Assembly (NCBI GenBank): GCA_045807085.1
Contig: JBJMIB010000037.1
Location: 39,546-103,545 of the forward strand
Reading direction: 5' to 3'
From: Jatrophihabitantaceae bacterium
GTDB taxonomy: Bacteria > Actinomycetota > Actinomycetes > Mycobacteriales > Jatrophihabitantaceae
DNA length: 64,000 nucleotides
Position numbers and translations under genes: made by a program. Positions 35,795-54,518 of this stretch are shown in pieces (the first letter of the stretch is position 1; each line of letters begins with the position of its first letter). The notes below the pieces were generated by a model. It did not search any database, was not told the DNA's origin, and saw only the letters and a list, made by a program, of their open reading frames with translations.

Positions 35795-36202
35795 ATGAGC
35801 GCAATCGAGCCGGCCGAGCCGGACGCGGCTCCGCCGAGTGTCCGGTACGCGGCCGGCATCGTGTTGGTGCAGGCGGCCGGGCTGTTGGTCACCGCGATCG
35901 CGCTGCTGGTGCTGGCCGTGGCGCATTCCAGCCAGCGGTTGTGGGCGGCGCTGGCCATCGCCGGCTTCGCCCTGCTCGGCGCGCTGGTCTTCTATGCCTG
36001 CGGCTGCGGCCTGCTCGGGCTGCGCCCGAGCGCCCGCTCGCCGATCGTGCTGCTGGAGTTGCTGGCGCTGCCGGTGGGGTATTCGCTGGGCATCCAGGCC
36101 GGTCGGGCGCTGGTCGGCATCCCGGTGCTGATCTCGGCGGTGGCGGTGCTGGTGCTGCTGTTCACCCCGTCCGCGCGGGCGGCATTGGATCGGATGCGAT
36201 AG
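35795..36202 (+). CDS. Conserved integral membrane protein
   Basis: Four hydrophobic helices, ARSPIVLLELLALPVG; syntenic with the DAG-kinase gene. Confidence 0.75.
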   Translation: MSAIEPAEPDAAPPSVRYAAGIVLVQAAGLLVTAIALLVLAVAHSSQRLWAALAIAGFALLGALVFYACGCGLLGLRPSARSPIVLLELLALPVGYSLGIQAGRALVGIPVLISAVAVLVLLFTPSARAALDRMR

Positions 36203-36229
36203 CCGATCCGGCGCGGTTGGCCGGCGTGG

Positions 36230-37006
36230 CTAGCCGGGCACCTGCACATCCGGCAGCTTGCTGCGCAGGTCCTGCAGCGTCTTGGCCAGCAGCCGGGACA
36301 CGTGGACCTGGGACACGCCAAGCGCCTGGGCGATCTCGTTCTGGGTCTTGTTCTCCACGAAGCGCATCACCAGCGCCCGCCGCTCCCGCTCGCCGAGCTT
36401 GGCCAGCACCGGACGTAGCGTGTGTCGTAATTCGACGTGTTCCAGCGCGGCGTCGGACTCCACCAGCCCGTCGGCCACCGTCATGCCGGTGCTCGAGTTG
36501 GGTACGTCGAGCGGCACCGCCGAGTAGGCCCGGGCAGAGTCGGTGGCTTCGATGACCTGTTCCTCGGTGAGGCCGAGATGCTCGGCCAGCTCGGCGATGG
36601 TGGGGGAGCGGCCCAGTCGCTGGGACAGCTCGTTGATGCCGGTGGCCAACTCGCCCTGCAGCTCCTGCAGCCGGCGGGGAACCCGCACCATCCAACCCCG
36701 GTCGCGGAAATGCCGCTTGATCTCGCCGACGATGTTCGGCGTGGCGAAGGTGGAGAATTCCAGGCCGCGCTCCACCTCGAACCGGTCGATGGCCTGCAGC
36801 AGGCCGATGGTGCCGATCTGTAGCAGGTCGTCGGCCGGCTCGCCGCGGCCGGTGAACCGGCGCGCCAGATACCGCACCAGCGGCATGTGGATCTCCACCA
36901 GCTCGGCCCGGACCTCGCTGTGCCGATCGGAGCCCGGGCGCAGGGTGGTCAGCTCTAGGAAGAGCTGGTGGGTTCGCTCGCGGTCGGGCCGGCTGCGCTC
37001 ACTCAT
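36230..37006 (-). CDS. SigB/SigF-family RNA polymerase sigma factor
   Basis: DDLLQIGTIGLLQAIDRF, FSTFATPNIVGEIKRHFRD, VRVPRRLQEL, TQNEIA..LGVSQVHVSRLL. Confidence 0.93.
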   Translation of the reverse strand: MSERSRPDRERTHQLFLELTTLRPGSDRHSEVRAELVEIHMPLVRYLARRFTGRGEPADDLLQIGTIGLLQAIDRFEVERGLEFSTFATPNIVGEIKRHFRDRGWMVRVPRRLQELQGELATGINELSQRLGRSPTIAELAEHLGLTEEQVIEATDSARAYSAVPLDVPNSSTGMTVADGLVESDAALEHVELRHTLRPVLAKLGERERRALVMRFVENKTQNEIAQALGVSQVHVSRLLAKTLQDLRSKLPDVQVPG

Positions 37007-37419
37007 GTGCTGCGGGCGCCTCGCGCCTTGGTGAGGGTGAGTGCCAGTCGGTCATCGGCGGCCGTGCTGGTTACCGAGTCGGCCAGCGCCGCGAGCACCA
37101 TCCAGGCGAAACTGGTCTGGTCCGGCTCGACAGCCGAGCGGCCGGGCGGCAGCGGAACCGAGACTCGGATGATCAGGGTGTTGTCCGCTCCATCGAAGGA
37201 GGCCGACAGCGAGCCGCCGTCGCCGGCGTGCGGCAACAGCAGCGCGCTGGCCTCGTCCACCGCGATCCGCAGGTCGTCGATCTCTTCGATGGTGAAGTCC
37301 CGGCGCGCGGCGAGTGAGGCGGTCACGGTGCGGACCACCGAGATATAGGCCGGGTTCGCGGGCACGGTGAGCTCAACGGTGTTAGGGCTAGCGCCGTTCC
37401 CGGCGGCGACATGACTCAC
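37003..37419 (-). CDS. rsbW: Anti-sigma factor RsbW/UsfX-like
   Basis: VELTVPANPAYISVVR, IDDLRIAVDEA; coupled to the sigma gene. Confidence 0.85.
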   Translation of the reverse strand: MSHVAAGNGASPNTVELTVPANPAYISVVRTVTASLAARRDFTIEEIDDLRIAVDEASALLLPHAGDGGSLSASFDGADNTLIIRVSVPLPPGRSAVEPDQTSFAWMVLAALADSVTSTAADDRLALTLTKARGARST

Positions 37420-37524
37420 ATGCTGCTCCTCATCACGCCAGCGGACGGCTTCGATCTTGCTGCCATAGCGGGAGAAAGCTATCCCGTCGGTCTGATCGGC
37501 TGCAATGCGGGGCCGTCTGCACGA

Positions 37525-38139
37525 TCAGTCGTCGGCGAGTTCGGAGCCGATGTTCCAGTGCAGGATGACCGGATTGCCGTGCTCGAAACCGAGGCTGGAG
37601 ACGGTGGCGGTGTCCAGCCGCAGGAACCGGCCGAACCGCACCGGCTGGCCGAGCCAGCGCGCGGCCAGGCAGCGACTGAAGTGCCCGTGCGAGAACACCA
37701 ACAGGGTCTGCCCGGACGTCCGGCGGCCTAGCAGCCGGTCGGCCCGGGCGGCCACCTCGGCAGCGGTCTCACCACCCGGCACCGGGCCGGACCAGATCGA
37801 CCAGTCCGGATACCGCTGCTGAATCTCGGAGGTGGTGCGCCCCTCCAGCTCGCCGTAGTCCCACTCGGCGGCGTCCTCGGTCAGCTGGGCCGGTGGGTAG
37901 CCGGCCAACTCGGCGGTGTGCAGCGCTCGGGCCCGGGGCGAACTGAGCACGCTGACCCGGCCGCGCTCGGGCAGCAGGGCCGCTATCACCCGGCCGGCCT
38001 GTCGGGCCTGCCGCTCGCCGGCCTCGGTGAGGGCCACGTCGGCGCGCCCGGTGTGCCTGCCGGAGCGGCTCCATTCGGTCTCGCCGTGCCGTACCACGAC
38101 CAGCGCCGCGACACCATCCGGCAGCGATTCGGAGGCCAT
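37525..38139 (-). CDS. Histidine phosphatase (phosphoglycerate mutase superfamily)
   Basis: VRHGETEWS, SSPRARALHTA, EWDYGELEG, FSHGH. Confidence 0.9.
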   Translation of the reverse strand: MASESLPDGVAALVVVRHGETEWSRSGRHTGRADVALTEAGERQARQAGRVIAALLPERGRVSVLSSPRARALHTAELAGYPPAQLTEDAAEWDYGELEGRTTSEIQQRYPDWSIWSGPVPGGETAAEVAARADRLLGRRTSGQTLLVFSHGHFSRCLAARWLGQPVRFGRFLRLDTATVSSLGFEHGNPVILHWNIGSELADD

Positions 38140-38201
38140 CCGCGCCACGCTAACAGCTCGCCGAGAGCGGCCGGCCGCGCGGGCGATGGCGTGCTGCCAG
38201 C

Positions 38202-38693
38202 TCAGGACTTGGTGGCGCTCCAGTTCCCGCCGGGTGCGCCGCCCACCTGATAGCTGCCGGACATCGAGTTGCCGGATACCGTGCCGGTATAGGTGATTGC
38301 GGCCGAGCCGACCGTGCCGAAGCTGATCTTGGCACCGGTGACCGTACCGGTCAGGCTCAGCGGGCTCGGCTCCGTCGAGAGCGTGATGGTGCCGCTTAGG
38401 CTGGACCCGGTCTGCTGCCAGCTGAGCTTGAACGTGCCAGTGAAGGCGCCACTGTACTGGCCCGACCAGTTGCCCGAGAGATCGACGCTTGCGGCGCTCG
38501 CGGGAGCTGACGACGTCGGCGGGGCGGCGCTGGGACTGGTCGAGGTGTTGCGCGCGGCCGGTGGCGGAGGGGTCGAGGTCGTGACCGTGCCACCACTGCT
38601 GCCGCATCCGGTGGCCAGGACGGCCAACGCTCCGAGCAAGGCAACGCGCATCATGGCGCGGCTGCGCGCAGTGGTAGGCGGTTCGCGTCGCAT
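38202..38693 (-). CDS. Putative lipoprotein with a P/S/T linker and a beta-rich domain
   Basis: Lipobox LATGC; VDLSGNWSGQYSG...GGNWSAT. Confidence 0.7.
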   Translation of the reverse strand: MRREPPTTARSRAMMRVALLGALAVLATGCGSSGGTVTTSTPPPPAARNTSTSPSAAPPTSSAPASAASVDLSGNWSGQYSGAFTGTFKLSWQQTGSSLSGTITLSTEPSPLSLTGTVTGAKISFGTVGSAAITYTGTVSGNSMSGSYQVGGAPGGNWSATKS

Positions 38694-38921
38694 GGCCGTC
38701 CCCCCATCAGGCGTGCTCGCTTGGTCTGCGGGGTTAGGAAAGCGGGTGTCGGCCGGGTTCCGCATCCGTAGCCACTACGTAGCAGCGGCCGACGTCCGCG
38801 CACGTACTGCGTAGTCGCTACCGACGTGTCCGGCGCGGCCGGCAGGCGATGCTGACGTGTGTCGCGACGAACTCGATCGGATCGGCCAAACCGGGGCTCG
38901 GGTCGCGGTACTGTGCGCGTC

Positions 38922-41516
38922 ATGGCCCATCGGTGGCCTTTCATCGGTCGCGCAGGTGAGTTGGCGCGCATCGAGTCCTTGATCACGTCCGGCATCGGCG
39001 CGCTCATCCTCGGCGAGCCGGGCGTCGGCAAGGCGGCCCTGGCCCGCCGCGCGGCGGAGCGGGTCGGCCCGGCAGCGCCGGTCGGACGCGTCATCGGGCG
39101 GGCGGTGTCCAACGGTGCACCGTTCGAGGCCTTCGCCGGGGTGCTGACGGCGGCCGACACCTCGGTCCTCTATCCCGTCGAGGTGGCGCGGCGGGTGGCC
39201 GAGGCGTTCGGGTCGCCGATCGGTACCAAGGTGCTGTTCGTGGTCGATGATGCTCAACTGCTCGATGAGCGCTCGGCACAGGTGTTGCTGCAACTCGCCG
39301 CCGACGGCACCGCGACGGTGTTGGCGACCGCCCGCGACCTCAGGCTGCCCGCGGCGGTTGAGCGGTTGTGGTACGACGGCTGGTGCGAGCGGATCGAGCT
39401 TGGCGGGTTGGCCGACGACGAGGTTCTGGAGCTCCTCGAAACCGTTCTCGACGCACCTGTCGGCGCTGCCGCCGCGCGGGCCTTCGCCAGCCGAGCCCAG
39501 GGCAATCCGTTATTGCTGCGCGAGCTCGTCGGCGCCGCGCTGAATGCCTCGACCCTCGTGTGGCGGGGCACGGCTTGGACGCTGGCCGGCGAGCCTCCGA
39601 TCAGCAGCGGCGTCCGGGAGCTGGTGAGGTCCCGGCTGGCGGCGCTGCCCGAGGCACAGCGCTCTGCTCTGGAGACGGTGGCCGCAGGGGAACCCCTCCC
39701 GGCTCCGGTCGTGGTCGACCTGATCGGTGAGACGGTGCTGGACGACCTCGACGCGAATCGGCTGATCACTGTCCACACCGGACTGGCCGGGCCGGAGGTC
39801 AGCAGCGCGCACCCATTGCAAGGTGAGGTGCTGCGCGCCGACATCCCGCTGCTGCGACTGCGCCGGCTTCGGCTGTTGTTGGCCAGCAAGCTGGAGGCCG
39901 TCGAAAGCCCGTCGCCGCACGATCTCGTCCGGGCAGCGTTGTGGCGGCTGGAGAACGGGCGGAGCGTAGATCCCGAGCGGCTGCTGGCTGCCGCCCGGGC
40001 CGCGCGAGGCATGAGTCTCGACACGGCCGAGCGGCTGGCCCGGCACGCGCACGAGATGAGCGGCTCGCTGCAGGCCACCGTGCTGCTCGCCGAGATCCTC
40101 ACGCACGCCGGGCGTAATGCGGAGGCAACGAAGCTGACCGAGACGCTGCCACCGGAATCGCTCACCTCGGCCGACCGGGAAGCCCTGGTGTACTGCGCCG
40201 CGATGGGGCAGGGTCTGATGATCGGCGACGCCGCCGGCGGCGCCGACTTCGTGGCCGCGGTGATGGCCGGCGATCCGGCCGCCAGTGACCAGTTACGTGG
40301 CTTGCACGCCTCGCTGCTGGCCTTCGACGGGCGATCGGGCGAGGCGATCGAGGTGGCCGGCCCGCTCGTCGAGAATCCGGACGCGCATCCGGTCGCGCGG
40401 ACGTTCGCGGCGATCGGCGCGGTCGGCGCCGAGTACTGGCTCGGCCATACTCGCCACGCAGTCGCCTTGGCTGACGCGGTCGCTCCGGTGGCCGCGACGG
40501 TCCGGGATGCGTTGCCCTTCGGCCCGGCCAGCATCGAGTTGATCGCCATCTGCGCACTGATCGAGGAGGGCGCGTTCGATCGGGCCGAAATGCGCGCCCA
40601 CCGGATGCGGGCACGGGCCACGGCCGATGATGACGCGTTCGCCGGCCCTCGAGGCGAGTACTGCATGGCCCGGGTCGAACTTGCCCGCGGCCGGCCCGCG
40701 ACCGCGCTGCGGGGATTCCGTCGCTGCGTGGCCGCACTCACCCCGTTCGACCAATCGTTCCTGCGACATATCAGCTCGATGCTGGCCCGGGCAGCCGCCA
40801 CCGTCGGAGATGTGACCAGCGCGCGGCAGGCCCTCGATGCCTGCGCCGACGCCCCGCGGATGAAGATGTACGAGCCGGAGTTCGAACTCGCCGTGGCCGC
40901 GCTGCATGCCGCCGATGTGCGGATGGCCGAGGCCGCCGACCATGCGGCCTGGGCCGCCGGCGTGGCCGCCGACCAGGGGCAGTGGAATGTCGCGCTCGCG
41001 GGTTATCACGACGCGGCTCGCTACGGCGTCGCCCGGACCATCCTCATCCCGCTGCGCGAGGCCGCCACGCACGTCGACGGGACGTTCGCGTGGTGCCTGA
41101 TCGACCACGCCTCGGCGTTGGCGGCCCGCGACCCGGTCGCGCTGGACGAGGTCGCCCGCCGGTTCGAGGTGCACTGCACGATCCTGCTGGCGGCCGAGGC
41201 GTCGGCCGAGGCTGCGCTCGCGCACACCGCTGCCGGGCATCCCCGGCCGGCCCGGGCCAGCGCGGCCCGCGCGGCGCTGCTGCGGGGTCAGTGCGAGGGT
41301 GCGTTGTCGCCCTGGTTGTTCGGTGCCGCCGTGGCGGTGCCGCTGACCGCGCGCGAACGGCAGATCGCCGCGCTGGCGGCCGGCGGCAACTCCGACGCGG
41401 CTATCGCCGACCGGCTCGGCATCTCTGCCCGAACCGTGCAGACCCACCTGGCCCGGGTCTACACCAAGCTCGGCATCAACAGCCGCACCGAGATCGGCCA
41501 GCACCTCAACGCCTGA
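38922..41516 (+). CDS. Large ATP-binding LuxR-family (LAL-like) regulator
   Basis: FIGRAGEL, GEPGVGKA Walker A variant, VVDDAQLLD, QGNPLLLREL, C-terminal LTARERQIA..AAGGNSDAAIADRLGISARTVQTHL. Confidence 0.88.
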   Translation: MAHRWPFIGRAGELARIESLITSGIGALILGEPGVGKAALARRAAERVGPAAPVGRVIGRAVSNGAPFEAFAGVLTAADTSVLYPVEVARRVAEAFGSPIGTKVLFVVDDAQLLDERSAQVLLQLAADGTATVLATARDLRLPAAVERLWYDGWCERIELGGLADDEVLELLETVLDAPVGAAAARAFASRAQGNPLLLRELVGAALNASTLVWRGTAWTLAGEPPISSGVRELVRSRLAALPEAQRSALETVAAGEPLPAPVVVDLIGETVLDDLDANRLITVHTGLAGPEVSSAHPLQGEVLRADIPLLRLRRLRLLLASKLEAVESPSPHDLVRAALWRLENGRSVDPERLLAAARAARGMSLDTAERLARHAHEMSGSLQATVLLAEILTHAGRNAEATKLTETLPPESLTSADREALVYCAAMGQGLMIGDAAGGADFVAAVMAGDPAASDQLRGLHASLLAFDGRSGEAIEVAGPLVENPDAHPVARTFAAIGAVGAEYWLGHTRHAVALADAVAPVAATVRDALPFGPASIELIAICALIEEGAFDRAEMRAHRMRARATADDDAFAGPRGEYCMARVELARGRPATALRGFRRCVAALTPFDQSFLRHISSMLARAAATVGDVTSARQALDACADAPRMKMYEPEFELAVAALHAADVRMAEAADHAAWAAGVAADQGQWNVALAGYHDAARYGVARTILIPLREAATHVDGTFAWCLIDHASALAARDPVALDEVARRFEVHCTILLAAEASAEAALAHTAAGHPRPARASAARAALLRGQCEGALSPWLFGAAVAVPLTARERQIAALAAGGNSDAAIADRLGISARTVQTHLARVYTKLGINSRTEIGQHLNA

Positions 41517-41626
41517 TGCGGCCGATCGCGCCACGGCGCGGGCGTTAGGCGGACGCCTGCCACTGCTCGGCGTAGGCGCGCAAGGTGCCCTTCGAAACCA
41601 TCGGCCCGCCAACCCTGCCTAAGTGG

Positions 41627-42772
41627 TCAATTCTCCGGTCGGAGGTGGTCATGCGCAGCATCCCTGGCCACCAGTTCGGCCTCGCAGATGGCCAGCAGGT
41701 CATTGAGCGTGTAGCCGTCCCGGGGCTTGCCGGCAGCGGCGACGTGGCCGGCGATGCCTTTGGTGCGAAGGGCTGTTCTCAACCGTGCCGCCAACGCTTC
41801 GGCGCTCAGCGACGGGCAATCCACCAGCAGCATGCCGAGTCCGTCCTGGCCGAGGTAGCCGATCGCGTCGCAACCGGCCTGCAGCCGAGCCACCGCGCTG
41901 ACCGCGACCGGGTCTGCGGTGGTTATCCGGATGATTGCCACTACCGGCAATGCGGCGACCACCTCGGTAGCGGCGATGGACCACGCTTCCTGCCCCATCG
42001 GCTGCAGCAGCGCATCGTCGGCCACATCTCGCAGCCGAGTTCGGGTGATCGTTCGTTGAAGCCCGACCGCCGCCGGCAGCGAGAGCCAGACCAGCATTCC
42101 GAGCCTGACGTCAACCAGCGCGACAACGCCAACAGCAATGGCAAGGCAGCAGACCTCGACCCGGTACGGACTCGGCTGGAGAAAGGCCCGCGCCGCTGAC
42201 CGTTCACCGGCCGCGAGCATCGCGGCGACGATTAGGAGAGCACCGATCGCGACATAGACCAAGACGGCCAGAGCGATTCCAAGCCACCGATCCACGCTCG
42301 AACTGGACACCGCGTGCGCAGCCGTCGCTGCCAGCACCGCTCCGGCTGTGCTGTAGACGTGCCGGTACAGGCGCGCTCTGCCAGCTACCCGTCGAGCAGG
42401 CCACTCGGCGGCGGCGCCCGCAACCGCTACGACCCACATCAGTTCGAGGGGAAGCAATACCGCGGCAGCGAAGCCCCAAATCGCCAGCAGGTTCGAGTAC
42501 CTGGCTGCCTCCGCCCCTTGGTGCAACGTCCGGCGGACCCGTTCGGCGCTGCACGTGTAGGTCGAGTAGGCGATACTCAGGGTGCCCAGCGCAACGGCTA
42601 TCTCGACGTCCGAGCGTGAGATCGCCTGCCAGAACGACGCGGGGAGCAGGACAGCCGCCAAGTCCACTGCCAGGATGAGGCCGAGCGCACCGGGTGGCTG
42701 TCGCCAGATCGGCCACTTTGCCGTCGCTCGGAGCACTACCTTGCACCCTTCTGCAGAATGCCCGCTGCACAA
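41627..42772 (-). CDS. Multi-TM membrane protein with a degenerate GGDEF-like C-terminus
   Basis: About 7 hydrophobic helices; DAIGYLGQDGLGMLL...AEALAARLR aligns by eye with the GGDEF region but lacks catalytic residues; start uncertain. Confidence 0.6.
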   Translation of the reverse strand: MCSGHSAEGCKVVLRATAKWPIWRQPPGALGLILAVDLAAVLLPASFWQAISRSDVEIAVALGTLSIAYSTYTCSAERVRRTLHQGAEAARYSNLLAIWGFAAAVLLPLELMWVVAVAGAAAEWPARRVAGRARLYRHVYSTAGAVLAATAAHAVSSSSVDRWLGIALAVLVYVAIGALLIVAAMLAAGERSAARAFLQPSPYRVEVCCLAIAVGVVALVDVRLGMLVWLSLPAAVGLQRTITRTRLRDVADDALLQPMGQEAWSIAATEVVAALPVVAIIRITTADPVAVSAVARLQAGCDAIGYLGQDGLGMLLVDCPSLSAEALAARLRTALRTKGIAGHVAAAGKPRDGYTLNDLLAICEAELVARDAAHDHLRPEN

Positions 42773-43320
42773 GCACGATGGGAGGTGACGTCACATGCGT
42801 AACTTCGAGTGGCCGTAAACCGGCACCATCTGGTCGCGTAGTCACGAACAGTACCTAGTGCGACGCGCGCTGTCACCACCCTGGCTGCCACGACCTTCCA
42901 GCGTCAGGGAGACCGCCCCGAGGTCGGCCGCGAACTGGCCGCTCGGCCTTCCTCGGGGCGGGAGCCAGCGCAGTGCGACACCAGCGCACCCGACACTTCC
43001 AGGTGGGGACCTCCGCCCACCCTCCTAGCCGGACAGCGCAGCGTACTGGCAAGTTTGGTGCTTACGGTTCCGGGGGATCGCCGGCTCGCGCAGCCGCTCC
43101 CGCAGGCGTCGCACACCCCCGGCCACCTTCAACGCAGCAGCGGAGCGTGCAGCGGCTGCCACCGTCCCTGAGTCTGAGGTTTCGCCGGCAGGCCCTCCCT
43201 GAGTGCCCCGACCGGCCGCGCTGGATGCGTACTGGCCACTGCGAAGCTCACGCAGCGTCAAAAAACGCAAGCCTGCGCACGCGGGTTTCGAAGGCCGGGC
43301 TCCGGCCAGCTTCCGCGCGG

Positions 43321-43352
43321 GCTGTCCGCAGCGAGTCCGCAAGCAGTCCGCG
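43321..43352 (-). repeat. Inverted array of three integrase arm-like sites outside the element
   Basis: GTCCGC(A/G) at 43324, 43335, 43346 (11-bp period); reverse complement matches 52205-52226 at 20/22. Confidence 0.75.
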
Positions 43353-43413
43353 AGACAGCCACCATGCGTCACCGTTGACCACCACTAGCCACCCTCAGGG
43401 AGCCGAAACGAGA

Positions 43414-43451
43414 ACCGGGCCGGACGTCATTCAGCTGACGTTCGGCCCGGT
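43414..43451 (-). terminator. Hairpin, probably the original sodN terminator displaced by the insertion
   Basis: ACCGGGCCGGACGTCA-TTCAGC-TGACGTTCGGCCCGGT, 16-bp stem with one mismatch, 16 bp beyond the left att copy. Confidence 0.7.
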
Positions 43452-43467
43452 CCGGAGCGGGCGAAGG

Positions 43468-43494
43468 CTAGGCAGCCTTCTTGGTCTCCCAGAA
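43468..43494. repeat. att core, left copy (duplicated sodN 3' end)
   Basis: CTAGGCAGCCTTCTTGGTCTCCCAGAA, identical to 52273-52299; encodes FWETKKAA-stop on the minus strand. Confidence 0.95.
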
Positions 43495-43496
43495 TT

Positions 43497-43639
43497 TGCG
43501 GACCACGCTGCAGGTCCGCGAATCCGGGCTCAGAGCCGCGCACCCCCCGGATTTCCTGGCCTCCGTACCGCTGACAAGCGTTGGCATCCGTGGGGGTCCG
43601 CTGGGCACGTTGCGGACTCCTTGCGGACAGCCTGCGGAC
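43497..43639 (+). promoter_or_regulatory. Integrase arm-type sites, left end of the element
   Basis: TGCGGAC at 43497, 43611, 43622, 43633 and inverted GTCCGCG at 43514. Confidence 0.75.
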
Positions 43640-43720
43640 TGACGTAAGCGGCCCGGCCGAGTGTTCGAAGCACTCAACCGGGCCTTGCCGAACTACCTAC
43701 CAGAGTTAGGAAGCCCGACC

Positions 43721-44194
43721 ATGAGCAAGAGTACGAGCGCCGGCAGACAGATACCTGATGAGGCCGCCGTCACAAAGCCATCCGTCCGAGCGCTGTGCTG
43801 CCAGTGCGGCCAGCTCAACACCTTTCCGACCGACCGCCCGTCGCCAAAGGGTGGCCTCAACTGGCGCGGCGAACGACAGCCCGTCGATGTGCGGGCCGGC
43901 ATCGTGCCGGCCGACGACGACACCGAGGCGTGGGCACGGTGTGTCATTCAGCGCCGCTGCCCGAACTGCAGAGAGCACACGACGCACGCCCTGCTGCGGG
44001 ATGAGCCCAGCCAGTACCGGGACAGTTTGGAGCGCACGCACCGGCTGCGCTGCGAGCAGGGCCGCAGGTACGACCCCGAGCCGCCCGAAGGGTGGACTCA
44101 ATGGGCGCTCGGCTACTGCACGTACTGCAGGTCTGGCATCGCGGAGTGGTTCGCCGACGTGCGTCGCTGGGATGCGCGTAGGGGCGGTGCCTGA
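43721..44194 (+). CDS. Cys-rich hypothetical protein (putative zinc-binding, phage-like)
   Basis: CCQC, CPNC, CTYC motifs; AGGAAG upstream of ATG 43721; TGATG coupling to the next ORF. Confidence 0.65.
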   Translation: MSKSTSAGRQIPDEAAVTKPSVRALCCQCGQLNTFPTDRPSPKGGLNWRGERQPVDVRAGIVPADDDTEAWARCVIQRRCPNCREHTTHALLRDEPSQYRDSLERTHRLRCEQGRRYDPEPPEGWTQWALGYCTYCRSGIAEWFADVRRWDARRGGA

Positions 44195-44373
44195 TGTACC
44201 TGGACGCGTGGCTGAACGATGACACCCCGCCGCACCCGCGCCGCCGCCTGACCGACCGCTGGTGGTATCGGCTCGGCCGGGCCGTGATCCTGCTCGGCAC
44301 GCACGCTGCCGCCGGGTGGATCGGGTACGACTGGCCCGCCGTCCTAGTGTGGATCGCCAGCAACCCGAAGTAG
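44194..44373 (+). CDS. 59-aa small membrane protein (not in the ORF track)
   Basis: MYLDAWLNDDTPPHPRRRLTDRWWYRLGRAVILLGTHAAAGWIGYDWPAVLVWIASNPK; translationally coupled and followed by a terminator. Confidence 0.6.
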   Translation: MYLDAWLNDDTPPHPRRRLTDRWWYRLGRAVILLGTHAAAGWIGYDWPAVLVWIASNPK

Positions 44374-44385
44374 AGCCCGCGCCGC

Positions 44386-44425
44386 CAAGAGGCCAGGTGT
44401 TCGAAACTGAACACCTGGCCTCTTG
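44386..44425 (+). terminator. Perfect 17-bp stem hairpin
   Basis: CAAGAGGCCAGGTGTTC-GAAACT-GAACACCTGGCCTCTTG, 12 bp after the stop at 44373. Confidence 0.8.
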
Positions 44426-44434
44426 CTGTGTGCG

Positions 44435-44959
44435 ATGATCCGGGCCGTGAACAGTGTTAGAACCGGCGCGGCGGGCGGCGCTGCGATGTTCCTGTTCCTG
44501 GTCCTAGCGCTTGCCGGTTGCACGGGGCACACGGGCCGAACCCCGCAGGAGCGAGCAGCCGCGTACGTGCAGAAGTATGGTGCTGAGGCGGTAGCTGTCC
44601 AGGGGGATGTGCAACAGGTGCAAGCCTTGCTTAAGACGACCGCCGCGAACGCCACCGACGCGAGCGTGGGCCGCCTGGCCATCATGGCGCAGGCCGCTCA
44701 CGATGACCTCGACTCGGGTAGGAGCGATTTCGCCACCGACGGGGGCGGTGGGGATGTCGGCGCGGCGATCACCTCCATGTACTCGGCCGTCAACGACTTG
44801 AAGAACGCCATGGGCGGCATCGTCGCCTACACCGGGAACCCGAACCCGGCCACTGAGGCGAAGATGGTCACTCAGTACCAGAACGCCGTCGCCGAGTGGA
44901 ACGACGCCGTGACGACGATCTGGTCAGTGGCCGGCGAGGGTAAGCCGCCGACGGTCTAG
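44435..44959 (+). CDS. Element-encoded lipoprotein (helical)
   Basis: Hydrophobic MFLFLVLALAGC lipobox followed by an alpha-helical, Ala/Gln-rich domain. Confidence 0.75.
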   Translation: MIRAVNSVRTGAAGGAAMFLFLVLALAGCTGHTGRTPQERAAAYVQKYGAEAVAVQGDVQQVQALLKTTAANATDASVGRLAIMAQAAHDDLDSGRSDFATDGGGGDVGAAITSMYSAVNDLKNAMGGIVAYTGNPNPATEAKMVTQYQNAVAEWNDAVTTIWSVAGEGKPPTV

Positions 44960-45270
44960 TCGAAGCGGGGTAGTTCGACGGGCAGCGAGTAGGCGTACAG
45001 CCAGCCGTTCCGCTGCCACCACTGATCGCCGCAGTCCGGCCCGTTGGTGGCGAGCCGGTAGAGCCGCATCCGGGCCCACTCGGTGAAGCTGGCGTCAACC
45101 TCCGGGGGGTTGTCCGGGTTGCTGACCGCGATCACTTCCCACGTCGTGCCCTGGTCGGCCTGCCGGGCCCGCATGAAGCCGCTCCGGCCGTCCCAAGGGA
45201 TCGAGCCGGGACGTGCCGGGATGATGGGCAGCGCGTGCGCCTGCCGCCACGCTTCCGGGTGGTCGTGCAT
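44956..45270 (-). CDS. Hypothetical protein coupled to the tail hub gene
   Basis: ATG at 45270 overlaps the TGA of the upstream gene (TGATG); 104 aa, Trp-rich. Confidence 0.65.
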   Translation of the reverse strand: MHDHPEAWRQAHALPIIPARPGSIPWDGRSGFMRARQADQGTTWEVIAVSNPDNPPEVDASFTEWARMRLYRLATNGPDCGDQWWQRNGWLYAYSLPVELPRFD

Positions 45271-47210
45271 CAGTAGGCGAAGACCATCGAGTCGAGCAAC
45301 CCATAGACCGGATCGTCGAGCGTGGCGTACAGGGAAGGATCGGCCGGCGCGGTGTTCAACGTCAGGGTGCAGGTGTCGGACCGGCCGGAGAAGTCCCACG
45401 ACAGCGACTCGATGACGAAATCCATGCTCGTGGACGGTGCCTCTGCCGGCAGCCCGGACACGGTGAACTGAACCCCGATCTCGGCCAGCGCCGCCACTGA
45501 CCAGAGGTCGCTGGCCCGCTTGAGGTCGATCGTCACGGTCGGTGTGCGCGGGATCGGCTGGGCGAGTCGGCCGATGCGGAAGTTCGCGTAGTCGGCCAGC
45601 TCGTTGTCGCTGGTGAGCTGCAGCAGTTCCGCGCCGGAGTCGTCGGGCGAGTTGGTGTAGACGCCGTAGTCGGCCACCGACGTCCCGGTGTCCCGGACCC
45701 GGATCACCGCGCCACCCGGACGGGTCACGGCGTAGTCGTTCAGCAGCAGCCCGTCGTCGATGCCGACCTGGAAATCCGCGGTCACGTCCTGCGCGGCGGC
45801 ATTCAGGCTGAACGCTGAGGTGCGGTTCATCGAGGCGAGCCGGCTACGGAAGATCAGCGCACCATCGCCCCGCATGAACAGCAGGCCCTGCTCGGTCTTG
45901 GCGACCGTCTGCAGCGCATCGAGGAAGGTCTTACCCGTAGTGTCGAACGGCGCGACGGCCGCTGTCATGCCGGTATCGGCGACCACCAACGGAGCGGCGA
46001 ACTGGTTGTAGCCGGCGAGCTGCGCGATGTCCGTCACCCATGAGCCGGTGTCGTTGTTGAGGTAGTACATCTGCCGGCCGTACAGCCAGCGGATGCTGTT
46101 GTTCAGCGTCGTGTCGGTGCCGATGTAGAACCCGATGTTCGCCAGGGAGCCGTTCAGGCCGTAGGCGGACTCGCCGTAGTTGGAGTACCGGCCGCCGGCG
46201 ACTACCCATGTCATGCCCCGCAGATAGATGTTCGCGCTGGTGGCGACGAAGGTTGCGGCCACCCCGTCCACGATCACCTGCTGAGTCTTCAGGTCGGTGA
46301 AGAACGACGCGGTGACGTAGTGCCAGACCCCATCGGCGTAGCTCGCGGCGCTGGTGACGGCCTGCCCGCCGATGGCGAAGTTCACCTTGCCGGCCGTGTC
46401 GACGTAGAGGTGCATCGTCGATGGCGGCAGCGTCGGTGTCAGCGCCGGGTCCTGCTGCAGCCCGGACGTGGCATACAACAAGGTTGCGTTGGCTGAAGGC
46501 GTGGTCAGCTTGAACCAGCATCCGATCGTCCAGTTCCCGGTGCGGGGCAGGCTCACCCCGGCAGGCCCCGGAGCGCCGCCGAGTTGGATCACGGTCATGT
46601 GCTCGGCGTTGCCGCTGCCGGTGAAGGCGAACGTGCAGTAGGTGGCGTTCGGCGCGCCCTGCAGGAACCCGGCACCGTTGCCGGCGGTGAACGTCCCGGC
46701 CCCGTACTTCGAGTCGAGCAACTGCGCCACGGGTGGCGAGGCGGCCGGCGCGATCGAGCCGAACGCCGTAGCGCCGGATGGCTCGGACAGCGGGAACGCG
46801 GCGGTGACGGTCATCCCGGACTGCAGCACCGACTCGGCGTAGAAGCTCTGCATCGTGCGCCGAGCTAGGCCCTTGAACCCGTCCGTCGCGCCGATGTTGA
46901 CAACCGCGGTCCGGCCACCGTCCCAGCTGGTGACGACGCTATCGAGGTTGCCGGTGAACAGGTAGGTGACGACGCTGGCGACGGTGACCGACACCCTCAC
47001 CGGCCGGTTCACCTTGACGTTCGGGTGTCCCGCGCCGGGCGAGTAGTTGCCGCTGTTGTTGTACAGGCTGCCGGAGAGCGTGCCGGGGCCGACCTGGTCG
47101 AACTCGTGCCCCCGTCCGCGGTTGATGCTGATCGAGTCGCAGTCGGCGGTTATGTCGGTCCAGGTGCCGGTGTTCGGCCAGTCGACTTCGACCTTCAGCG
47201 TGCCGCTCAT
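45270..47210 (-). CDS. Phage minor tail / baseplate hub-like protein with an inserted LamG (concanavalin A-like) domain
   Basis: AAGGA RBS; N-terminal WTDITADCDSISINRGRG..D..GPGTLS..LYN typical of actinophage tail proteins; LamG motifs WTIGCWFK, YADGVWHYV, VIVDGV, GGR..LNGSLANI; hub-like C-terminus LDALQTVAKTEQGLLFMRGDGALIFRSR. Confidence 0.75.
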   Translation of the reverse strand: MSGTLKVEVDWPNTGTWTDITADCDSISINRGRGHEFDQVGPGTLSGSLYNNSGNYSPGAGHPNVKVNRPVRVSVTVASVVTYLFTGNLDSVVTSWDGGRTAVVNIGATDGFKGLARRTMQSFYAESVLQSGMTVTAAFPLSEPSGATAFGSIAPAASPPVAQLLDSKYGAGTFTAGNGAGFLQGAPNATYCTFAFTGSGNAEHMTVIQLGGAPGPAGVSLPRTGNWTIGCWFKLTTPSANATLLYATSGLQQDPALTPTLPPSTMHLYVDTAGKVNFAIGGQAVTSAASYADGVWHYVTASFFTDLKTQQVIVDGVAATFVATSANIYLRGMTWVVAGGRYSNYGESAYGLNGSLANIGFYIGTDTTLNNSIRWLYGRQMYYLNNDTGSWVTDIAQLAGYNQFAAPLVVADTGMTAAVAPFDTTGKTFLDALQTVAKTEQGLLFMRGDGALIFRSRLASMNRTSAFSLNAAAQDVTADFQVGIDDGLLLNDYAVTRPGGAVIRVRDTGTSVADYGVYTNSPDDSGAELLQLTSDNELADYANFRIGRLAQPIPRTPTVTIDLKRASDLWSVAALAEIGVQFTVSGLPAEAPSTSMDFVIESLSWDFSGRSDTCTLTLNTAPADPSLYATLDDPVYGLLDSMVFAY

Positions 47211-47377
47211 CGTGTGTCCTTGCTGTAGGTGGACCCGGGAGCGCAGGCAGCGGGTACGCCCTCCGAGCAAGGGCTGAGCGTGGCGGCTAATTGGAGGCCG
47301 CGCCGGTTGCCTTGGATTCCCGCGCGCCGCGATTGCCCTAGCAGCGCGGGGGTGACTTTGACGCTCACCGGGTCAGG

Positions 47378-47551
47378 TCAGTCGTCGGTCGGCAGGGTCA
47401 CCCGGTCACCGACCGAGACTCCGGCCGTCAGGGTCGCTGTGCTCTGCTCGGCCATCTCCGCGAGGGCCAGCGCGACCGCGTTGGCCGGGCGGGACGTGAT
47501 GCAGTCGTCCGGGGTGCCGTCATCCGGCACGCCGGCAGGTTGGGTAATCAC
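47378..47551 (-). CDS. 57-aa small ORF (not in the ORF track)
   Basis: GTGA overlap with the upstream gene stop; MITQPAGVPDDGTPDDCITSRPANAVALALAEMAEQSTATLTAGVSVGDRVTLPTDD. Confidence 0.5.
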   Translation of the reverse strand: MITQPAGVPDDGTPDDCITSRPANAVALALAEMAEQSTATLTAGVSVGDRVTLPTDD

Positions 47552-48075
47552 TGGACGCCCCGCTCCATCGCGGACAGCCGCACGGCGGTCCGGATGAGCT
47601 TGGTGTCCCGACGACGGCGGGCGGTGATCCGCGCGGCGCGGTCGGCCAGCTCAGCGGCCTCCTGCACCTCCTCGAACGACGGTGCGGACGTGTCGGCCGA
47701 CGTGTCGCCGTACCATGCCTCGTTGCACTTGTCCTGCACCCACTTGGCCTGTAGGCCGGCCTGCCGCGCGTCTTCCCAGTCCATTCGGGACGACGCCAGC
47801 GCGACCATCTCGGCCCGGGTGTGCCCGATGCCGCCGTTACGGACGGCCTCCCGCACGTCGAAGATTTCGCCCCGGTCGACCGCGAGTTCGATCGAGGCCC
47901 TGATCCGCTTGTCCTCGTCCTGCGCCCGCAGCTCGGCCCGCTCCCGCTCCACCCGGGCGGCCTGCTGGTCGAACGCGGCATCGGCCATCTCGCACCGCAG
48001 CCGCAACGACGGCGACATGCGCTCACGGGACGCGCCGCCGAACCCGCCACCTACGAAAACAACCATCTCAGTCAC
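47548..48075 (-). CDS. Hypothetical helical/coiled-coil protein
   Basis: AAGGAG upstream, GTGA overlap with the HTH gene; heptad-like QQAARVERERAELRAQ segment. Confidence 0.65.
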   Translation of the reverse strand: MTEMVVFVGGGFGGASRERMSPSLRLRCEMADAAFDQQAARVERERAELRAQDEDKRIRASIELAVDRGEIFDVREAVRNGGIGHTRAEMVALASSRMDWEDARQAGLQAKWVQDKCNEAWYGDTSADTSAPSFEEVQEAAELADRAARITARRRRDTKLIRTAVRLSAMERGVQ

Positions 48076-48479
48076 TCGGAATTCTCCTTCGGGGTGGCCG
48101 GCAGCCCGGCGACGTAGGTCTGTAGGTCGGCAGTCCGCACAACCGCCTTGCCGGCGATGCGGACGCTGGGCAGTTCACCGGCAGCGATGAGCCGCTGTGC
48201 AGAGCGCTTCGAGCAGCGCAGCGCGTCAGCGGCTTCGTCAACGTCCAGCACAAGAGCCATGGGCGCAGAGTCAGCCTCAGCACCCGAGCCCGGCAAGTTT
48301 GGCGCTCCCTGGCGCTCGGTGGCGCTCTCTGTCGTTTCCAGCACCGCGATCAGGTCCCGCACGACAGCCGGAACGGGCAAGCCCTCAGCCCGACGACGCG
48401 TCCGATAGCTCACCAGGGCACGCCGCAGATGCACCCCATCGGACGCGTCCAGCGCCAACACCAGCGCCGAGCTACCCAT
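48072..48479 (-). CDS. Excisionase-like HTH_17 domain protein
   Basis: C-terminal LDVDEAADALRCSKRSAQRLIAAGELPSVRIAGKAVVRTADL; start trimmed to ATG 48479. Confidence 0.8.
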   Translation of the reverse strand: MGSSALVLALDASDGVHLRRALVSYRTRRRAEGLPVPAVVRDLIAVLETTESATERQGAPNLPGSGAEADSAPMALVLDVDEAADALRCSKRSAQRLIAAGELPSVRIAGKAVVRTADLQTYVAGLPATPKENSE

Positions 48480-48513
48480 GATCGCGCGCCCGCATCGTGG
48501 AAGACCCGGCACT

Positions 48514-48698
48514 CCGACCCGCCAGCCGAGCTTTTTCTGTCTGTAGCCGAAAAAAAGCAAGCCGTCGTGAAACGCCGGGCGCACCCGACCCGCCAGCCGA
48601 ACAGATTTCTCCCCCCGATACCCCGGGGAGGGGGGTAGGTAGCCGCGTGGTGGTGGAAAAAAAGCCGTAGATAGAAAAGGTTCGGCTGGCGGGTCGAG
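48514..48698. promoter_or_regulatory. Symmetric non-coding site: candidate packaging (cos-like) or replication site
   Basis: Three identical 15-mers CGACCCGCCAGCCGA (48515, 48586, inverted at 48682), a 28-bp inverted repeat (25/28), A7 tracts, and a central C6-GATA-CCCCGGGG-A-G6 near-palindrome. Confidence 0.55.
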
Positions 48699-48849
48699 AG
48701 GCCGTTCGGTTTCGCGATCCGGTTCGGTTGTGGGCTGCCGTGTCGCGCTCGGCCCGGTCGAGTTCGATGCACCCGGCGATGGTCAGGCCGGCGAGCGGGG
48801 TCAGCCAGGAGGCTGTCACCAGCATGTTGTGCAGGGCGGCGTACAGCAT

Positions 48850-49557
48850 TTAGCTGGCCCTGATGTCGAGCTGAGGGAATGGGCAGTACTGGCCTGCGGT
48901 CAGCCTGTGGCAGCCGGAGTTGTCGCCCATCGTGGTCCGTCGTCGGCACTCGCTGCAGTTCGGCTCTGTGCCGCTGGTGTTCGGTGAGTCGGCAACGGTG
49001 GTGGTGGTGTCCGGTGCTGCTTCGTCGGTGCGCTGTTCCTGGTGTTGCTGGTCGGGTGCGTCGCGGCTGCCGTCGTGGTCGGGTCGCCGGTCGCGGCCTT
49101 GGTCTAAGGCTCCGTGCTCACTTGCGTTCGCGCTGTCTTCTATTGACTCGGCCACTAGGTGGCACACTCGTTCGGGCCGGGAGTGTGTACTTTCTGGCTC
49201 ACTCGTTCGGCCATTAGTGGTGCACTCCCTAGCTTCGGAGTAGGCCACATGTGGCGCACTATCGCCTTGCGGAGTAGGCCATTCGTGGCACACTCCGGGC
49301 AGTGCCGCCTGATACCTCGATCGGGCACCGACACCGCCCCGGGCGATGCGGTCCAGCCAGCCGGCGTCAACCGCTTTCGCCAGGTGGCGCGCGAGCGTCC
49401 GGACAGGTAGCCCGGTCAGCTCGGCCATCTCCGTATTCGTGGCCGTGATGGTGCCCTCGGTGGTCATCGGCAGCAGCAGCAGCGTTGCCCGTGCGATCCG
49501 TAGCCCGGCCGGGAAGTCGCCGCGCCGTACCTCGCGTAGCCACTGCCCGCGGTTCAT
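48850..49557 (-). CDS. Winged-HTH replication initiator-like protein
   Basis: N-terminal wHTH TNTEMAELTGLPVRTLARHLAKAVDAGWL..G....SRY, internal iterons, low-complexity linker, C-terminal Cys cluster. Confidence 0.7.
   Translation of the reverse strand: MNRGQWLREVRRGDFPAGLRIARATLLLLPMTTEGTITATNTEMAELTGLPVRTLARHLAKAVDAGWLDRIARGGVGARSRYQAALPGVCHEWPTPQGDSAPHVAYSEARECTTNGRTSEPESTHSRPERVCHLVAESIEDSANASEHGALDQGRDRRPDHDGSRDAPDQQHQEQRTDEAAPDTTTTVADSPNTSGTEPNCSECRRRTTMGDNSGCHRLTAGQYCPFPQLDIRAS
49150..49294. repeat. Four iterons inside the initiator gene (putative ori)
   Basis: GGCCA-N4/5-TGGYRCACT at 49150, 49209, 49243, 49277; the last three are spaced exactly 34 bp. Confidence 0.8.
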
Positions 49558-49784
49558 GGTGACCCGCCGAGAGTGAGTTCCACCTGGTGCCCGTCGGCCA
49601 CCAGCGCGGCCTCAACGTCTGCAAGGTGCTGGCGGGCTACCAGGTAGGCGTGCCGGCGATGGTCGTACATCCACGGGATGCCGAGCCGCTGAATGGCGGG
49701 GTGCACGATCCGAACCGGGCCGCTGATAAGGCCGCTGTGCATGTGCACGCCGGTTCGGATGGTGGAGGAGGTCTTCTTCTTCAC
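49554..49784 (-). CDS. Hypothetical protein
   Basis: 76 aa; GTGA and ATGA overlaps on both sides within the early operon. Confidence 0.65.
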   Translation of the reverse strand: MKKKTSSTIRTGVHMHSGLISGPVRIVHPAIQRLGIPWMYDHRRHAYLVARQHLADVEAALVADGHQVELTLGGSP

Positions 49785-50209
49785 GCGGCAACACCTGGGT
49801 CTCCATCGAGAAGATCACCGCGATCTCCATCGAGCCGAACACCTGGGTAGTCAGGTGAGCCGCCGTACCGCTGCCGGTTGCGGTACGCCTGTTCGAATCT
49901 GTAGCACTTCGCGCAGCGCCTGCAGCGAGTCCGGCAAGGCTCGTTGTCGCACTGCCGAGCCCGCGCCAGCTCATCCTGCGTCGGCTGCCTGAGTGTGGAG
50001 ATCGTCGGTGCAAGCCACTCACTGACCCGTTCGGCGTGCGCGTCCCACCCCGCGAGCCAGCCCGCCGTGTAGTGACCGAACTCCTCCGGGGAGAACGGCC
50101 AGAACGGCGAGGTTCTGTCGGTGCCAGCGGGTAGGATCGGGCCGTCAGTGGTGCGGTTTGGGATCGGGTCGGTCTGGGCGGGCCGACCTTTTCCATCCGG
50201 CGGGCTCAC
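49781..50209 (-). CDS. Hypothetical protein with a Cys-rich motif
   Basis: GTG 50209 overlaps the upstream TGA; GWLAGW and CRTRCRRCAKC motifs. Confidence 0.6.
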   Translation of the reverse strand: MSPPDGKGRPAQTDPIPNRTTDGPILPAGTDRTSPFWPFSPEEFGHYTAGWLAGWDAHAERVSEWLAPTISTLRQPTQDELARARQCDNEPCRTRCRRCAKCYRFEQAYRNRQRYGGSPDYPGVRLDGDRGDLLDGDPGVAA

Positions 50210-50394
50210 GCGGCATCGCCGCTGCAGCTCTGCGCGTCGATCCACTGCTCTAGCGCATCGGCGGGGTACCGGACGAGACGGCCGGTCTTGATCCACTTCG
50301 GGCCATAGCCGATGCCGCGCCAGTAGCGCAGCGTTTCGATCGGCCGCTTCAACCGCGCCCCGACTTCTAGCGGGGTGAGTAGTTCGCTCATCAC
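50206..50394 (-). CDS. AlpA/excisionase-type HTH protein
   Basis: LLTPLEVGARLKRPIETLRYWR..GYGPKWIKTGRLVRY....LEQWI; GGAG RBS. Confidence 0.88.
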   Translation of the reverse strand: MMSELLTPLEVGARLKRPIETLRYWRGIGYGPKWIKTGRLVRYPADALEQWIDAQSCSGDAA

Positions 50395-50402
50395 GTCTCC
50401 TA

Positions 50403-50498
50403 TTCGCGTAGGTGCTCTGGCCTACATACATAGCGTGACAGCGAGAGCGAACGCGTAGGAGCGTTGACTTACGCGGGAGGTCGTGTAACCTACGCGTT
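50403..50498. promoter_or_regulatory. Divergent switch region with operator repeats
   Basis: CGCGTAGG at 50405 and 50452; perfect inverted repeat AACGCGTAGG (50450-50459) / CCTACGCGTT (50489-50498); TTGACT-N16-TAACCT ending 7 nt before GTG 50499. Confidence 0.65.
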
Positions 50499-51152
50499 GT
50501 GACGCTTTTCTCGATCGGCCGGGCCGGCTGGGTCCGGTTCGAATCCGCGGACTGCCCGCCGACCTACCTCCGGTACCTGCCTGACGAGATCGGCCGATGG
50601 ACGCTGCGCGAGCTGATGATGGACGCCAGCGAGTCTCCGGCGATCACAGCGGCGACTCTGGCCGCGCTGCCGCTGGCCCAAATCGAGTTCAATGTGAACT
50701 ACTACGCCGACTTGATGGAGGGCAGCCAAGAGGGCGGCCAAACGCTATCGAGCGCGGTCGGTGGTCCTGCTGCCGGCTCCAACGTGGCTGTCCTCGCTTC
50801 CCATTTCGCTACCGGCTTCGTCAAGTACCAGCCGGAGAAGTGGGTAGCGCTCGCGCAGCAGGGTAAGCAGGTCGGCAAGGAGCGACGCGCTGTAGGGGCC
50901 AAACGTCCGACTCTGGACGTTGACTACCGCCTCACGGAACCGCCGCCCGGCAGGTTGACCGATGAGTTTCTAGGCAAGGTGGCGCGCGCCTATGCCGCTG
51001 CGATGGTGCGGGGTGAAGCGCCGCTCCAAGCAATGATCGCGGACCTTCGAGCGGCAGGCGCTGGCGACTACCGGCGCGCGGTTGAGCGCTGGGTTGCTAC
51101 AGCACGGAAACGCGGCGTCATGCCGCCCGGCAAGAAAGGTGCTCGCGGATGA
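50499..51152 (+). CDS. Putative regulator with a C-terminal HTH-like region (resembles DUF6214)
   Basis: LGKVARAYAAAMVRGEAPLQAM...AVERWVATARKRGVM; divergent from AlpA-like gene and ATGA-coupled to the integrase. Confidence 0.6.
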   Translation: MTLFSIGRAGWVRFESADCPPTYLRYLPDEIGRWTLRELMMDASESPAITAATLAALPLAQIEFNVNYYADLMEGSQEGGQTLSSAVGGPAAGSNVAVLASHFATGFVKYQPEKWVALAQQGKQVGKERRAVGAKRPTLDVDYRLTEPPPGRLTDEFLGKVARAYAAAMVRGEAPLQAMIADLRAAGAGDYRRAVERWVATARKRGVMPPGKKGARG

Positions 51153-52237: not shown

Positions 52238-52272
52238 GCACCATGCAGCCCAGCAAATACGGGCCTTCCCGC

Positions 52273-52299
52273 CTAGGCAGCCTTCTTGGTCTCCCAGAA
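52273..52299. repeat. att core, right copy (3' end of intact sodN)
   Basis: Identical to 43468-43494. Confidence 0.95.
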
Positions 52300-52671
52300 G
52301 ATCGTGTCGATCTCGGCGATCAGGTCCAGCAGCGCCTGGCCCTCGGCCGGGTCGACGGAGCCCTTGCCGCCGGCCGCGCCGGCTGCCTTGGTGGCCTTGT
52401 TGAACAGCTCGTGCAGCTGCGGGTACTTCTCGAAGTGCGGCGGCTTGAAGTAGTCGGTCCACAGCACCCACAGGTGGTGCTTGACCAGGTCTGCCCGCTG
52501 CTCCTTGATCAGCAGCGCCCGGGTGCGAAAGACCGGGTCCTCGTTGGCCTGGTACTTCTCCATGATGGCCTTCACCGACTCGGCTTCGATCCGAGCCTGG
52601 GCCGGGTCGTAGACACCGCACGGCAGGTCGCAGTGAGCTGAGGCAGTGGCCACACGACGCATCAAGCGCAT
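52273..52671 (-). CDS. sodN: Nickel superoxide dismutase
   Basis: Leader followed by the nickel hook HCDLPCGVYDPAQA; HLWVLWTDYFK. Confidence 0.97.
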   Translation of the reverse strand: MRLMRRVATASAHCDLPCGVYDPAQARIEAESVKAIMEKYQANEDPVFRTRALLIKEQRADLVKHHLWVLWTDYFKPPHFEKYPQLHELFNKATKAAGAAGGKGSVDPAEGQALLDLIAEIDTIFWETKKAA

Positions 52672-52781
52672 TGACTTTCCTCCATTTCAACATGGATGCC
52701 CGAGGGTTCACCGGACTGATCCCGGGCGAACCGCTCATCGCTGACGACCCTACTCCGCAGCCGTTCCCGGGTTCCGGCAGC

Positions 52782-53316: not shown

Positions 53317-54495
<1,179 letters not shown>

Positions 54496-54518
54496 GTGCT
54501 CAGTCCGCCGGGCCATCG

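Follow-up and report, generated by a model that had tools for sequence, protein, structure and literature searches.

The window (the whole 64,000-nucleotide stretch of DNA that was analyzed) carries on its minus strand sodN, a gene for nickel superoxide dismutase (52273–52671; 132 aa; 90–98% identical in congeners). Its product matches Pfam Sod_Ni over profile positions 2–127 of 127 (2.4e-46) and can be aligned over its whole length with solved Streptomyces NiSOD chains (1T6U and others; 2.5e-55). Those chains end in ...IDKIFWETKKA, and the C-terminus of the sodN ORF in the window reads ...IDTIFWETKKAA*. All elements of a nickel superoxide dismutase locus are present, namely the Sod_Ni family match, the HCDLPCG nickel hook following a 12-residue propeptide, and an adjacent S26-type maturation peptidase. 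The last is encoded by a sodX-like S24/S26 peptidase gene (52671–53156, plus strand; Peptidase_S24, 9.8e-11), which is divergent from sodN, lies in the chromosomal flank and keeps its synteny in all relatives. An earlier reading of this DNA from its letters and open reading frames (hereafter, the sequence-only reading) had held that sodN stays intact, and the 132-residue length, the full-length Sod_Ni match and the end-to-end NiSOD alignment agree with it.

The last eight sense codons of sodN and its TAG stop, in frame at 52273–52299, recur as an exact copy at 43468–43494. This 27-mer (CTAGGCAGCCTTCTTGGTCTCCCAGAA/TTCTGGGAGACCAAGAAGGCTGCCTAG) is present in exactly two copies in the window, both on the minus strand, and a repeat search returned it as a perfect (100%) two-copy direct repeat with a period of 8805 bp; by chance, a match is not expected (0 of 100 dinucleotide-preserving shuffles). 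On reading the sequence, identity is lost sharply at both edges. The claim that the repeat core is the sodN 3′ end holds, strictly as eight sense codons plus the stop. The copy at 52273–52299 (sodN-proximal att core) is in frame with sodN and joined to the integrase-side arm of the intervening DNA; the copy at 43468–43494 (distal att core) has element DNA upstream of it and no sodN body. When we allowed up to four errors, no third, degenerate core was found in window positions 36–53 kb. The site was also said not to be a tRNA, and ARAGORN indeed found no tRNA or tmRNA in 36000–56000; the core thus does not overlap such a gene as it would in a tRNA/tmRNA-integrating element, and Rfam families gave no match in 38000–54000. 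The distal core closes a 69-aa chimeric ORF (43468–43677, minus strand) composed of the element arm and ...FWETKKAA*, a new reading frame that arises from the attP design and is probably meaningless.

Between the two cores of the direct repeat lies an integrated element of 8778 bp (43495–52272), for which a one-core circle of 8805 bp is predicted; it is absent from the sodN–HisPhos interval of the closest relative, G014. Its plus-strand gene int1 (51149–52237), whose 3′ end faces the sodN stop, encodes a tyrosine integrase of 362 aa with SAM-like and central domains (PF00589, 3.3e-26; phrog_1, 8.6e-62). Residues R193, K228, H295, R298, H321 and Y331 do not vary among seven aligned clade members and, as assigned from motifs, would make up a complete catalytic set. 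The N-terminal 55 residues are highly conserved and gave no match to a Pfam arm domain. By its sequence, Int1 looks like an intact integrase. An HTH_17 protein of the AlpA/Xis type, encoded on the minus strand (48072–48584; PF12728, 9.6e-11; phrog_66 "excisionase and transcriptional regulator", 4.3e-6), is a candidate excision directionality factor. The remaining cargo includes a 235-aa protein with weak replication-initiator PHROG matches (2.4e-5), a 666-aa LamG-containing protein that falls in phrog_5313 (tail protein) and is the sole virion-type product of the element, and several further ORFs without a family match. Among the element ORFs there were no FtsK/Tra-type transfer genes and no Rep-family Pfam matches. 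Given the lack of an FtsK/Tra-type gene, this is not a classical actinomycete conjugative element, and the gene set expected of an actinomycete integrative and conjugative element (AICE) was not found.

The DNA beside the cores contains regularly spaced GCGGAC motifs. The pattern GCGGAC-N5-GCGGAC, with an 11-bp period, has six matches in the 4.57-Mb genome (compared with one control match), five of which are at the sodN locus. One such pair lies in the integrase-side arm, inside the last codons of int1 (52207–52223, plus strand), and a triple array with the same period lies inside the element, 118–145 bp from the distal core (43612–43639, plus strand). Read from the sequence, an inverted GCGGAC...GTCCGC pair (43498–43519) abuts the distal core. 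The motif at the int 3′ end is shared with the relatives G017, G135, L078, L079 and G159. This layout is what would be expected for the arm-type sites of a lambda-like integrase, and we regard the arrays as putative sites of that kind. A third triple array with the 11-bp period lies outside the direct repeats in inverted orientation (43324–43351, minus strand) and mirrors the in-element array about the distal core, with 89% complementarity over 27 nt; an earlier related element may have left it behind. We considered whether this outside array was part of a longer integrase-gene relic and rejected the idea: similarity to int1 stops after 23 nt, and the local-alignment score of 36 compares with a shuffle maximum of 42.

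From these features we infer the roles of the core sites, the overlap and the arm sites. The attP of the element would itself contain the final 27 bases of sodN and would recombine, through the tyrosine integrase, with an attB that is the sodN 3′ end. The proposed 7-bp overlap is GGAGACC (52288–52294 and again 43483–43489, minus strand), within the W-E-T codons, and Int would bind the imperfect inverted repeat CTTCT...AGAAG that flanks it. The overlap was assigned to this heptamer because the limits of identity between site pairs always include it: the window pair shares 27 bp, identity in the MAG-derived genome G162 starts exactly at GGAGACC, and the relic in G013 keeps CTGGGAGACCAAGAA. The N-terminal domain of Int would bind the GCGGAC arrays of both arms, with the HTH_17 protein acting as the excisionase. 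Recombination would leave the end of sodN unchanged (...FWETKKAA*) and place an orphan copy of the tail at the far end of the element; the repaired site is predicted to read as the sodN tail followed by CCTTCGCCCGCTCC....

A survey of sodN-downstream regions for integrases, as had been suggested from the sequence-only reading, was positive. Integrases 54–67% identical to Int1 lie at the same spot beside sodN in the congener G017, in the MAG contigs L078 and L079 and in the metagenome contigs L147, L149 and L153. The two MAG contigs come from outside the genus and have the same convergent pair (int 61% and sodN 69% identical in L078; int 54% and sodN 74% identical in L079, from genome G162), and G162 has a second core, GGAGACCAAGAAGGCcTGA, 17.8 kb downstream of sodN. 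In G017, which belongs to the same genus, the integrase (61–67% identical) converges with sodN and lies 39 bp from the sodN stop. G017 and G021 are 97.3% identical through sodX–sodN, with homology ending 3 nt past the sodN stop; in G021, a hairpin and a His_Phos_1 gene follow directly, and this order of sodN, hairpin and His_Phos_1 is found in many congeners. The two genomes are a clean occupied/empty pair. The far end of the G017 insert lies beyond the contig, with no second core within 21.5 kb, and no exact empty site with the window's own two flanks was found among the relatives compared. Other relatives hold pieces of such insertions: the last 104 codons of an integrase of this kind beside sodN in G135, about 115 nt of the integrase-side arm at the sodN site in G018, and, in G013, an insertion of 1.7 kb behind sodN, closed by a degenerate second copy of the core, CTGGGAGACCAAGAA-ACTGCCTAG.

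In a tree, all five full-length integrases next to sodN group as a single clade (100/99 support) apart from tRNA-adjacent homologues; since the groups were defined by sodN adjacency itself, this clustering does not amount to an independent test. More distant Int1 homologues from the same bacterial family (35–42% identical) adjoin tRNA-Lys, Val, Glu, Arg, Ala and Gly genes. sodN is not the only target in the Int1 clade. The integrases of L145 and L146 (64% identical to Int1) lie against the 3′ end of a gene for a type IV leader peptidase, with the relative in L145 converging on that gene (Peptidase_A24; 4134–4802, minus strand), and an Int1 relative in L183 (60% identical) converges on an HhH-GPD repair gene (4090–4881, minus strand). 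Within the clade, targets are therefore switched from one protein-gene 3′ end to another. L145 and the sodN-associated L147 have nearly identical integrase-side arms, and target specificity seems to have switched recently.

The sodN tail was also identified on phage contigs. Four IMG/VR contigs (G161, G159, G160 and G158) hold the core without the sodN body. One of them, G161 (L123), has a length of 41,570 bp, direct terminal repeats and a CheckV completeness of 100%, and encodes small and large terminase subunits, portal, tape measure, a phrog_5313 tail protein, endolysin, primase/polymerase and a 454-aa integrase. It contains a single ...ATCGACAAGATCTTCTGGGAGACCAAGAAGGCTTGA (...IDKIFWETKKA*) about 130 bp beyond the integrase stop. 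This lone sodN tail, of the Streptomyces type, is the attP of a complete temperate phage, and the suggested survey of the site thus extends to a phage that carries the sodN tail as its attP. The G161 integrase is only 21–25% identical to Int1, and that of G159 belongs to the Int1 clade (56% identical). G159 and G160 are labelled "provirus" in IMG/VR, yet have an attP-like order. Among cultured phages in the GenBank phage collection, the best integrase identity was about 33% and there was no core match beyond chance. A looser pattern run against viral contigs returned L130 and L131, which were discarded as low-GC chance matches. The G161 integrase (L123:13619–14983, minus strand) has a LysM match before its catalytic domain (PF01476, 3.4e-6; residues 241–286), an insertion that is unusual for a tyrosine recombinase. 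In L123, L125, L126 and L127, three close TGGGAGA(C/T) repeats and GCAGGTCAG motifs lie in the arm opposite the integrase, about 100–200 nt upstream of the core; the arm motifs of these Streptomyces-type phages differ from the GCGGAC arrays of the window element, and the core is the same.

We consider it very likely that the 8.8-kb element is a site-specific insertion by a tyrosine integrase into the sodN 3′ end, with an attP that carries the 27-base sodN tail. The 27-bp repeat could in principle be a chance repeat, a transposon target duplication or what is left of a partial sodN duplication rather than a pair of att cores, a view to which we give practically no credence: nothing beyond the mere presence of a repeat speaks for it, and it is opposed by the nil chance expectation in shuffles, by a length far above that of transposon target duplications together with the absence of a transposase in profile searches, by the distal copy having no sodN-like sequence upstream, by the lone sodN tails beside integrases on phage contigs, and by the G017/G021 breakpoint at the sodN stop. 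A second alternative accepts the site and concerns the state of the element. A homologue of its 666-aa tail gene, the only virion-type gene, comes next after the tape measure in both G161 and G159, and tail gene, core and integrase come in the same order in all three, which fits a satellite derived from G161/G159-like phages or a deletion remnant of one. As an immobile remnant of a sodN-integrating prophage of this kind, the element would retain its integrase side together with the distal part of the late operon (from the tail protein to att), and the replication, packaging and head genes would have been lost. The shared phrog_5313 gene, core and order speak for such a remnant, and so does the frequency of in-situ decay at the sodN site, as seen in the relics of G135, G018 and G013; against it, no difference has arisen between the two 27-bp repeats, no catalytic residue of the integrase is missing, the Xis-like gene is intact and each side has an arm-like array, which together fit a recent or still active element. 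We put the immobile remnant somewhat short of an even chance. The arm–core junction expected of a free or circular form of the 8.8-kb element had no match in the metagenome scan.

The convergence of sodN and int1 invites a different question, that of transcription across the junction. The two stops are 35 bp apart (spacer 52238–52272) with a weak hairpin only (fold z = −0.56; 54 of 200 shuffles fold as well), and a pattern scan found no terminator-like site in this spacer. The description of sodN as converging directly on int is accurate, and, because the spacer has neither a strong hairpin nor a terminator-like site, read-through is possible in either direction. A strong hairpin does occur 19 nt after the distal core (43414–43451, minus strand; −47.9 kcal/mol in an 81-nt context, z = −6.07; 0 of 200 shuffles fold as well) and is a candidate for the original sodN terminator. 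The sequence-only reading had called it the likely native terminator, now 8.8 kb away: that there is a strong hairpin at this distance from sodN was confirmed, and its being native was not, as this flank is not shared with any relative. In position it agrees with the hairpins of relatives, which come about 15–45 nt after the sodN stop and have no sequence homology to 43414–43451, and beyond the window hairpin come the outside arm-like array and a 4.9-kb non-syntenic island. It is plausible that 43414–43451 is the native terminator, displaced by the element.

Convergence might also be a regulatory device, an idea that goes back to the sequence-only reading. Integration could then alter the 3′ processing of sodN mRNA, nickel- or oxidative-stress-responsive transcription of sodN would yield RNA antisense to int, and read-through from int would act on sodN, so that maintenance or excision of the element would follow the metal or redox state of the host. 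In lambda, sib retroregulation depends on integration changing the sequence downstream of int, and integration likewise alters the DNA downstream of int here; the int 3′ end abuts the att site in every member seen, and in the window the weak hairpin between the stops and the strong one beyond the distal core would suit such a device. In G017 and G135, however, a strong 8-bp hairpin (z = −4.0) is present at the same place between sodN and int, where it would block the coupling; being element-borne, it argues against read-through as a designed feature. The same convergent geometry on unrelated genes (peptidase A24 and HhH-GPD) makes it a property of the integrase family rather than of sodN. We therefore judge a sodN-specific regulatory coupling unlikely, and by a wide measure. 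Were it nonetheless true, the choice of sodN would, more speculatively, tie prophage or satellite behavior to metal or oxidative stress.

The non-syntenic island occupies the 4.9 kb from the distal core to the His_Phos_1 gene (38608–43467). It is absent from G014, and the gene order of G014, G013 and G018 is regained only at or below 38157, at the His_Phos_1 gene; none of the relatives compared shares the flank beyond the distal core. By Pfam, the island includes a LuxR-family gene (38859–41516, plus strand) and a gene for a multi-pass membrane protein (41627–42772, minus strand) with many paralogues in the genus. The latter ORF had been considered as a second integrase, with its many paralogues and its presence beside sodN in G013, and was rejected when Pfam identified a multi-pass membrane protein and no recombinase domain. 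Its homologue in G013 lies inside the relic that is bounded by the decayed sodN core, in the opposite orientation relative to sodN. This inverted homologue and the outside GCGGAC array together suggest that an older related element decayed at the window locus. Integration at the sodN site explains the variable DNA downstream of sodN in the genus, as prophage, integrase stumps, a relic with a decayed core and the 4.9-kb island. Divergent from the membrane-protein gene is a tiny ORF (window 42790–42819, plus strand) with a GGAGG-type ribosome-binding site and the ending ...NFEWP*; a tiny ORF beside the G013 homologue, MRN(x)EWP*, occurs in three copies (L075, about 2515–2540, and two near 3000–3200). 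It looks like a conserved leader peptide or a small repeat unit.

The closest analogue of the sodN element is the icd case. Both coliphage 21 and the e14 element insert at the 3′ end of icd, the isocitrate dehydrogenase gene, and carry a replacement gene end that keeps the protein functional, leaving a duplicated gene tail at the far end of the element. The features of this type recur here: the direct repeats equal the 3′ end of a target ORF that is still full length; close relatives include both an occupied and an empty site, and their sequences part at the repeat (G017/G021); and a free form with the gene fragment as attP beside int is found for related phages (G161). Common to the sodN element and the icd elements are a tyrosine integrase, a conserved housekeeping protein gene that is entered at its 3′ end, the replacement tail and the duplicated tail. 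The two differ in target gene, host phylum and integrase lineage, and the sodN segment is only 27 bp, identical, and brings no alternative C-terminus. A second group of comparators comprises pSAM2, SLP1 and actinobacterial prophages, whose tyrosine integrases target tRNA or tmRNA genes, with int beside attP and the 3′ end of the target regenerated. Fold, position of int and regeneration of the target end are common to these and the sodN element, whose GCGGAC arrays are putative counterparts of their arm-type repeats; unlike pSAM2/SLP1-type elements, the sodN element targets a protein gene and has no FtsK/Tra-type gene or clear Rep.

For phage phiEf11, an attB in ffs (the 4.5S RNA gene) has been described with an identical 27-nt core located 74 nt from the end of the integrase gene (PMC12540744). 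The new attB is defined alike in both cases, by an identical 27-nt core near the integrase gene end, but the phiEf11 target is an RNA gene, the host a Firmicute and the phage held in the laboratory, whereas the sodN case comes from sequence alone. In the TIGER/Islander resource, 43.4% of about 1.75 million islands lie inside coding sequences (PMC12424338), and it is stated as a general matter that islands often reconstitute the gene entered (PMC12884075). The sodN element follows this general rule of target-gene reconstitution. Neither PMC12424338 nor PMC12884075 names sodN or superoxide dismutase as a target; the database may list the site without a description. A literature search returned no relevant full-text paper on sodN with integrase, attB or prophage. 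No cultured phage record carried the core or a close integrase either, and the remark in the sequence-only reading that sodN is not known as a described attB stands for the papers searched. What is new is sodN as a target; 3′-end integration with repair of the gene end is well known, and no new mechanism is revealed.

The landing site is conserved at the DNA level well beyond the genus. When we sampled 401 genomes, evenly drawn from the class, the 19-mer TTCTGGGAGACSAAGAAGG was found with at most one mismatch in 188, almost always as a single copy, compared with a total of two control matches. By analogy with a tRNA gene, the sodN tail would work as a landing pad in being short and conserved as DNA across much of the class, and this opens the same site to many hosts. 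Its users include an entire clade of integrases and, with a far more distant integrase, a complete temperate phage. We therefore suggest, tentatively, that the 20-nt sodN tail (TTCTGGGAGACCAAGAAGGC) might be a "safe-harbour" attB across much of the class, for at least two very different integrase lineages (the Int1 clade and that of G161). If so, a small int-attP module could serve as a broad-host-range integration vector that leaves sodN intact, and the compact int-attP pair is a candidate tool for actinomycetes without the usual phiC31/phiBT1 sites, with a predictable site and no gene disrupted. sodN joins the conserved genes that serve actinobacterial phages and islands as targets in place of tRNA genes, and the likely reason is that its last codons are conserved as DNA.

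Occupancy of the site is rare in the 401-genome sample, where a direct core pair on the same contig was found only in the window's own genome. The other genomes with two copies were rejected as occupied sites: G224 has sodN paralogues, G423 a contig break, and G339 and G365 chance near-matches. The two paralogues in G224 are both full sodN genes and lie on different contigs (L136 and L140). In G423, two contigs (L135 and L139) end precisely at the sodN core, as would be expected from a repeat, and this genome may hold another occupied sodN site.
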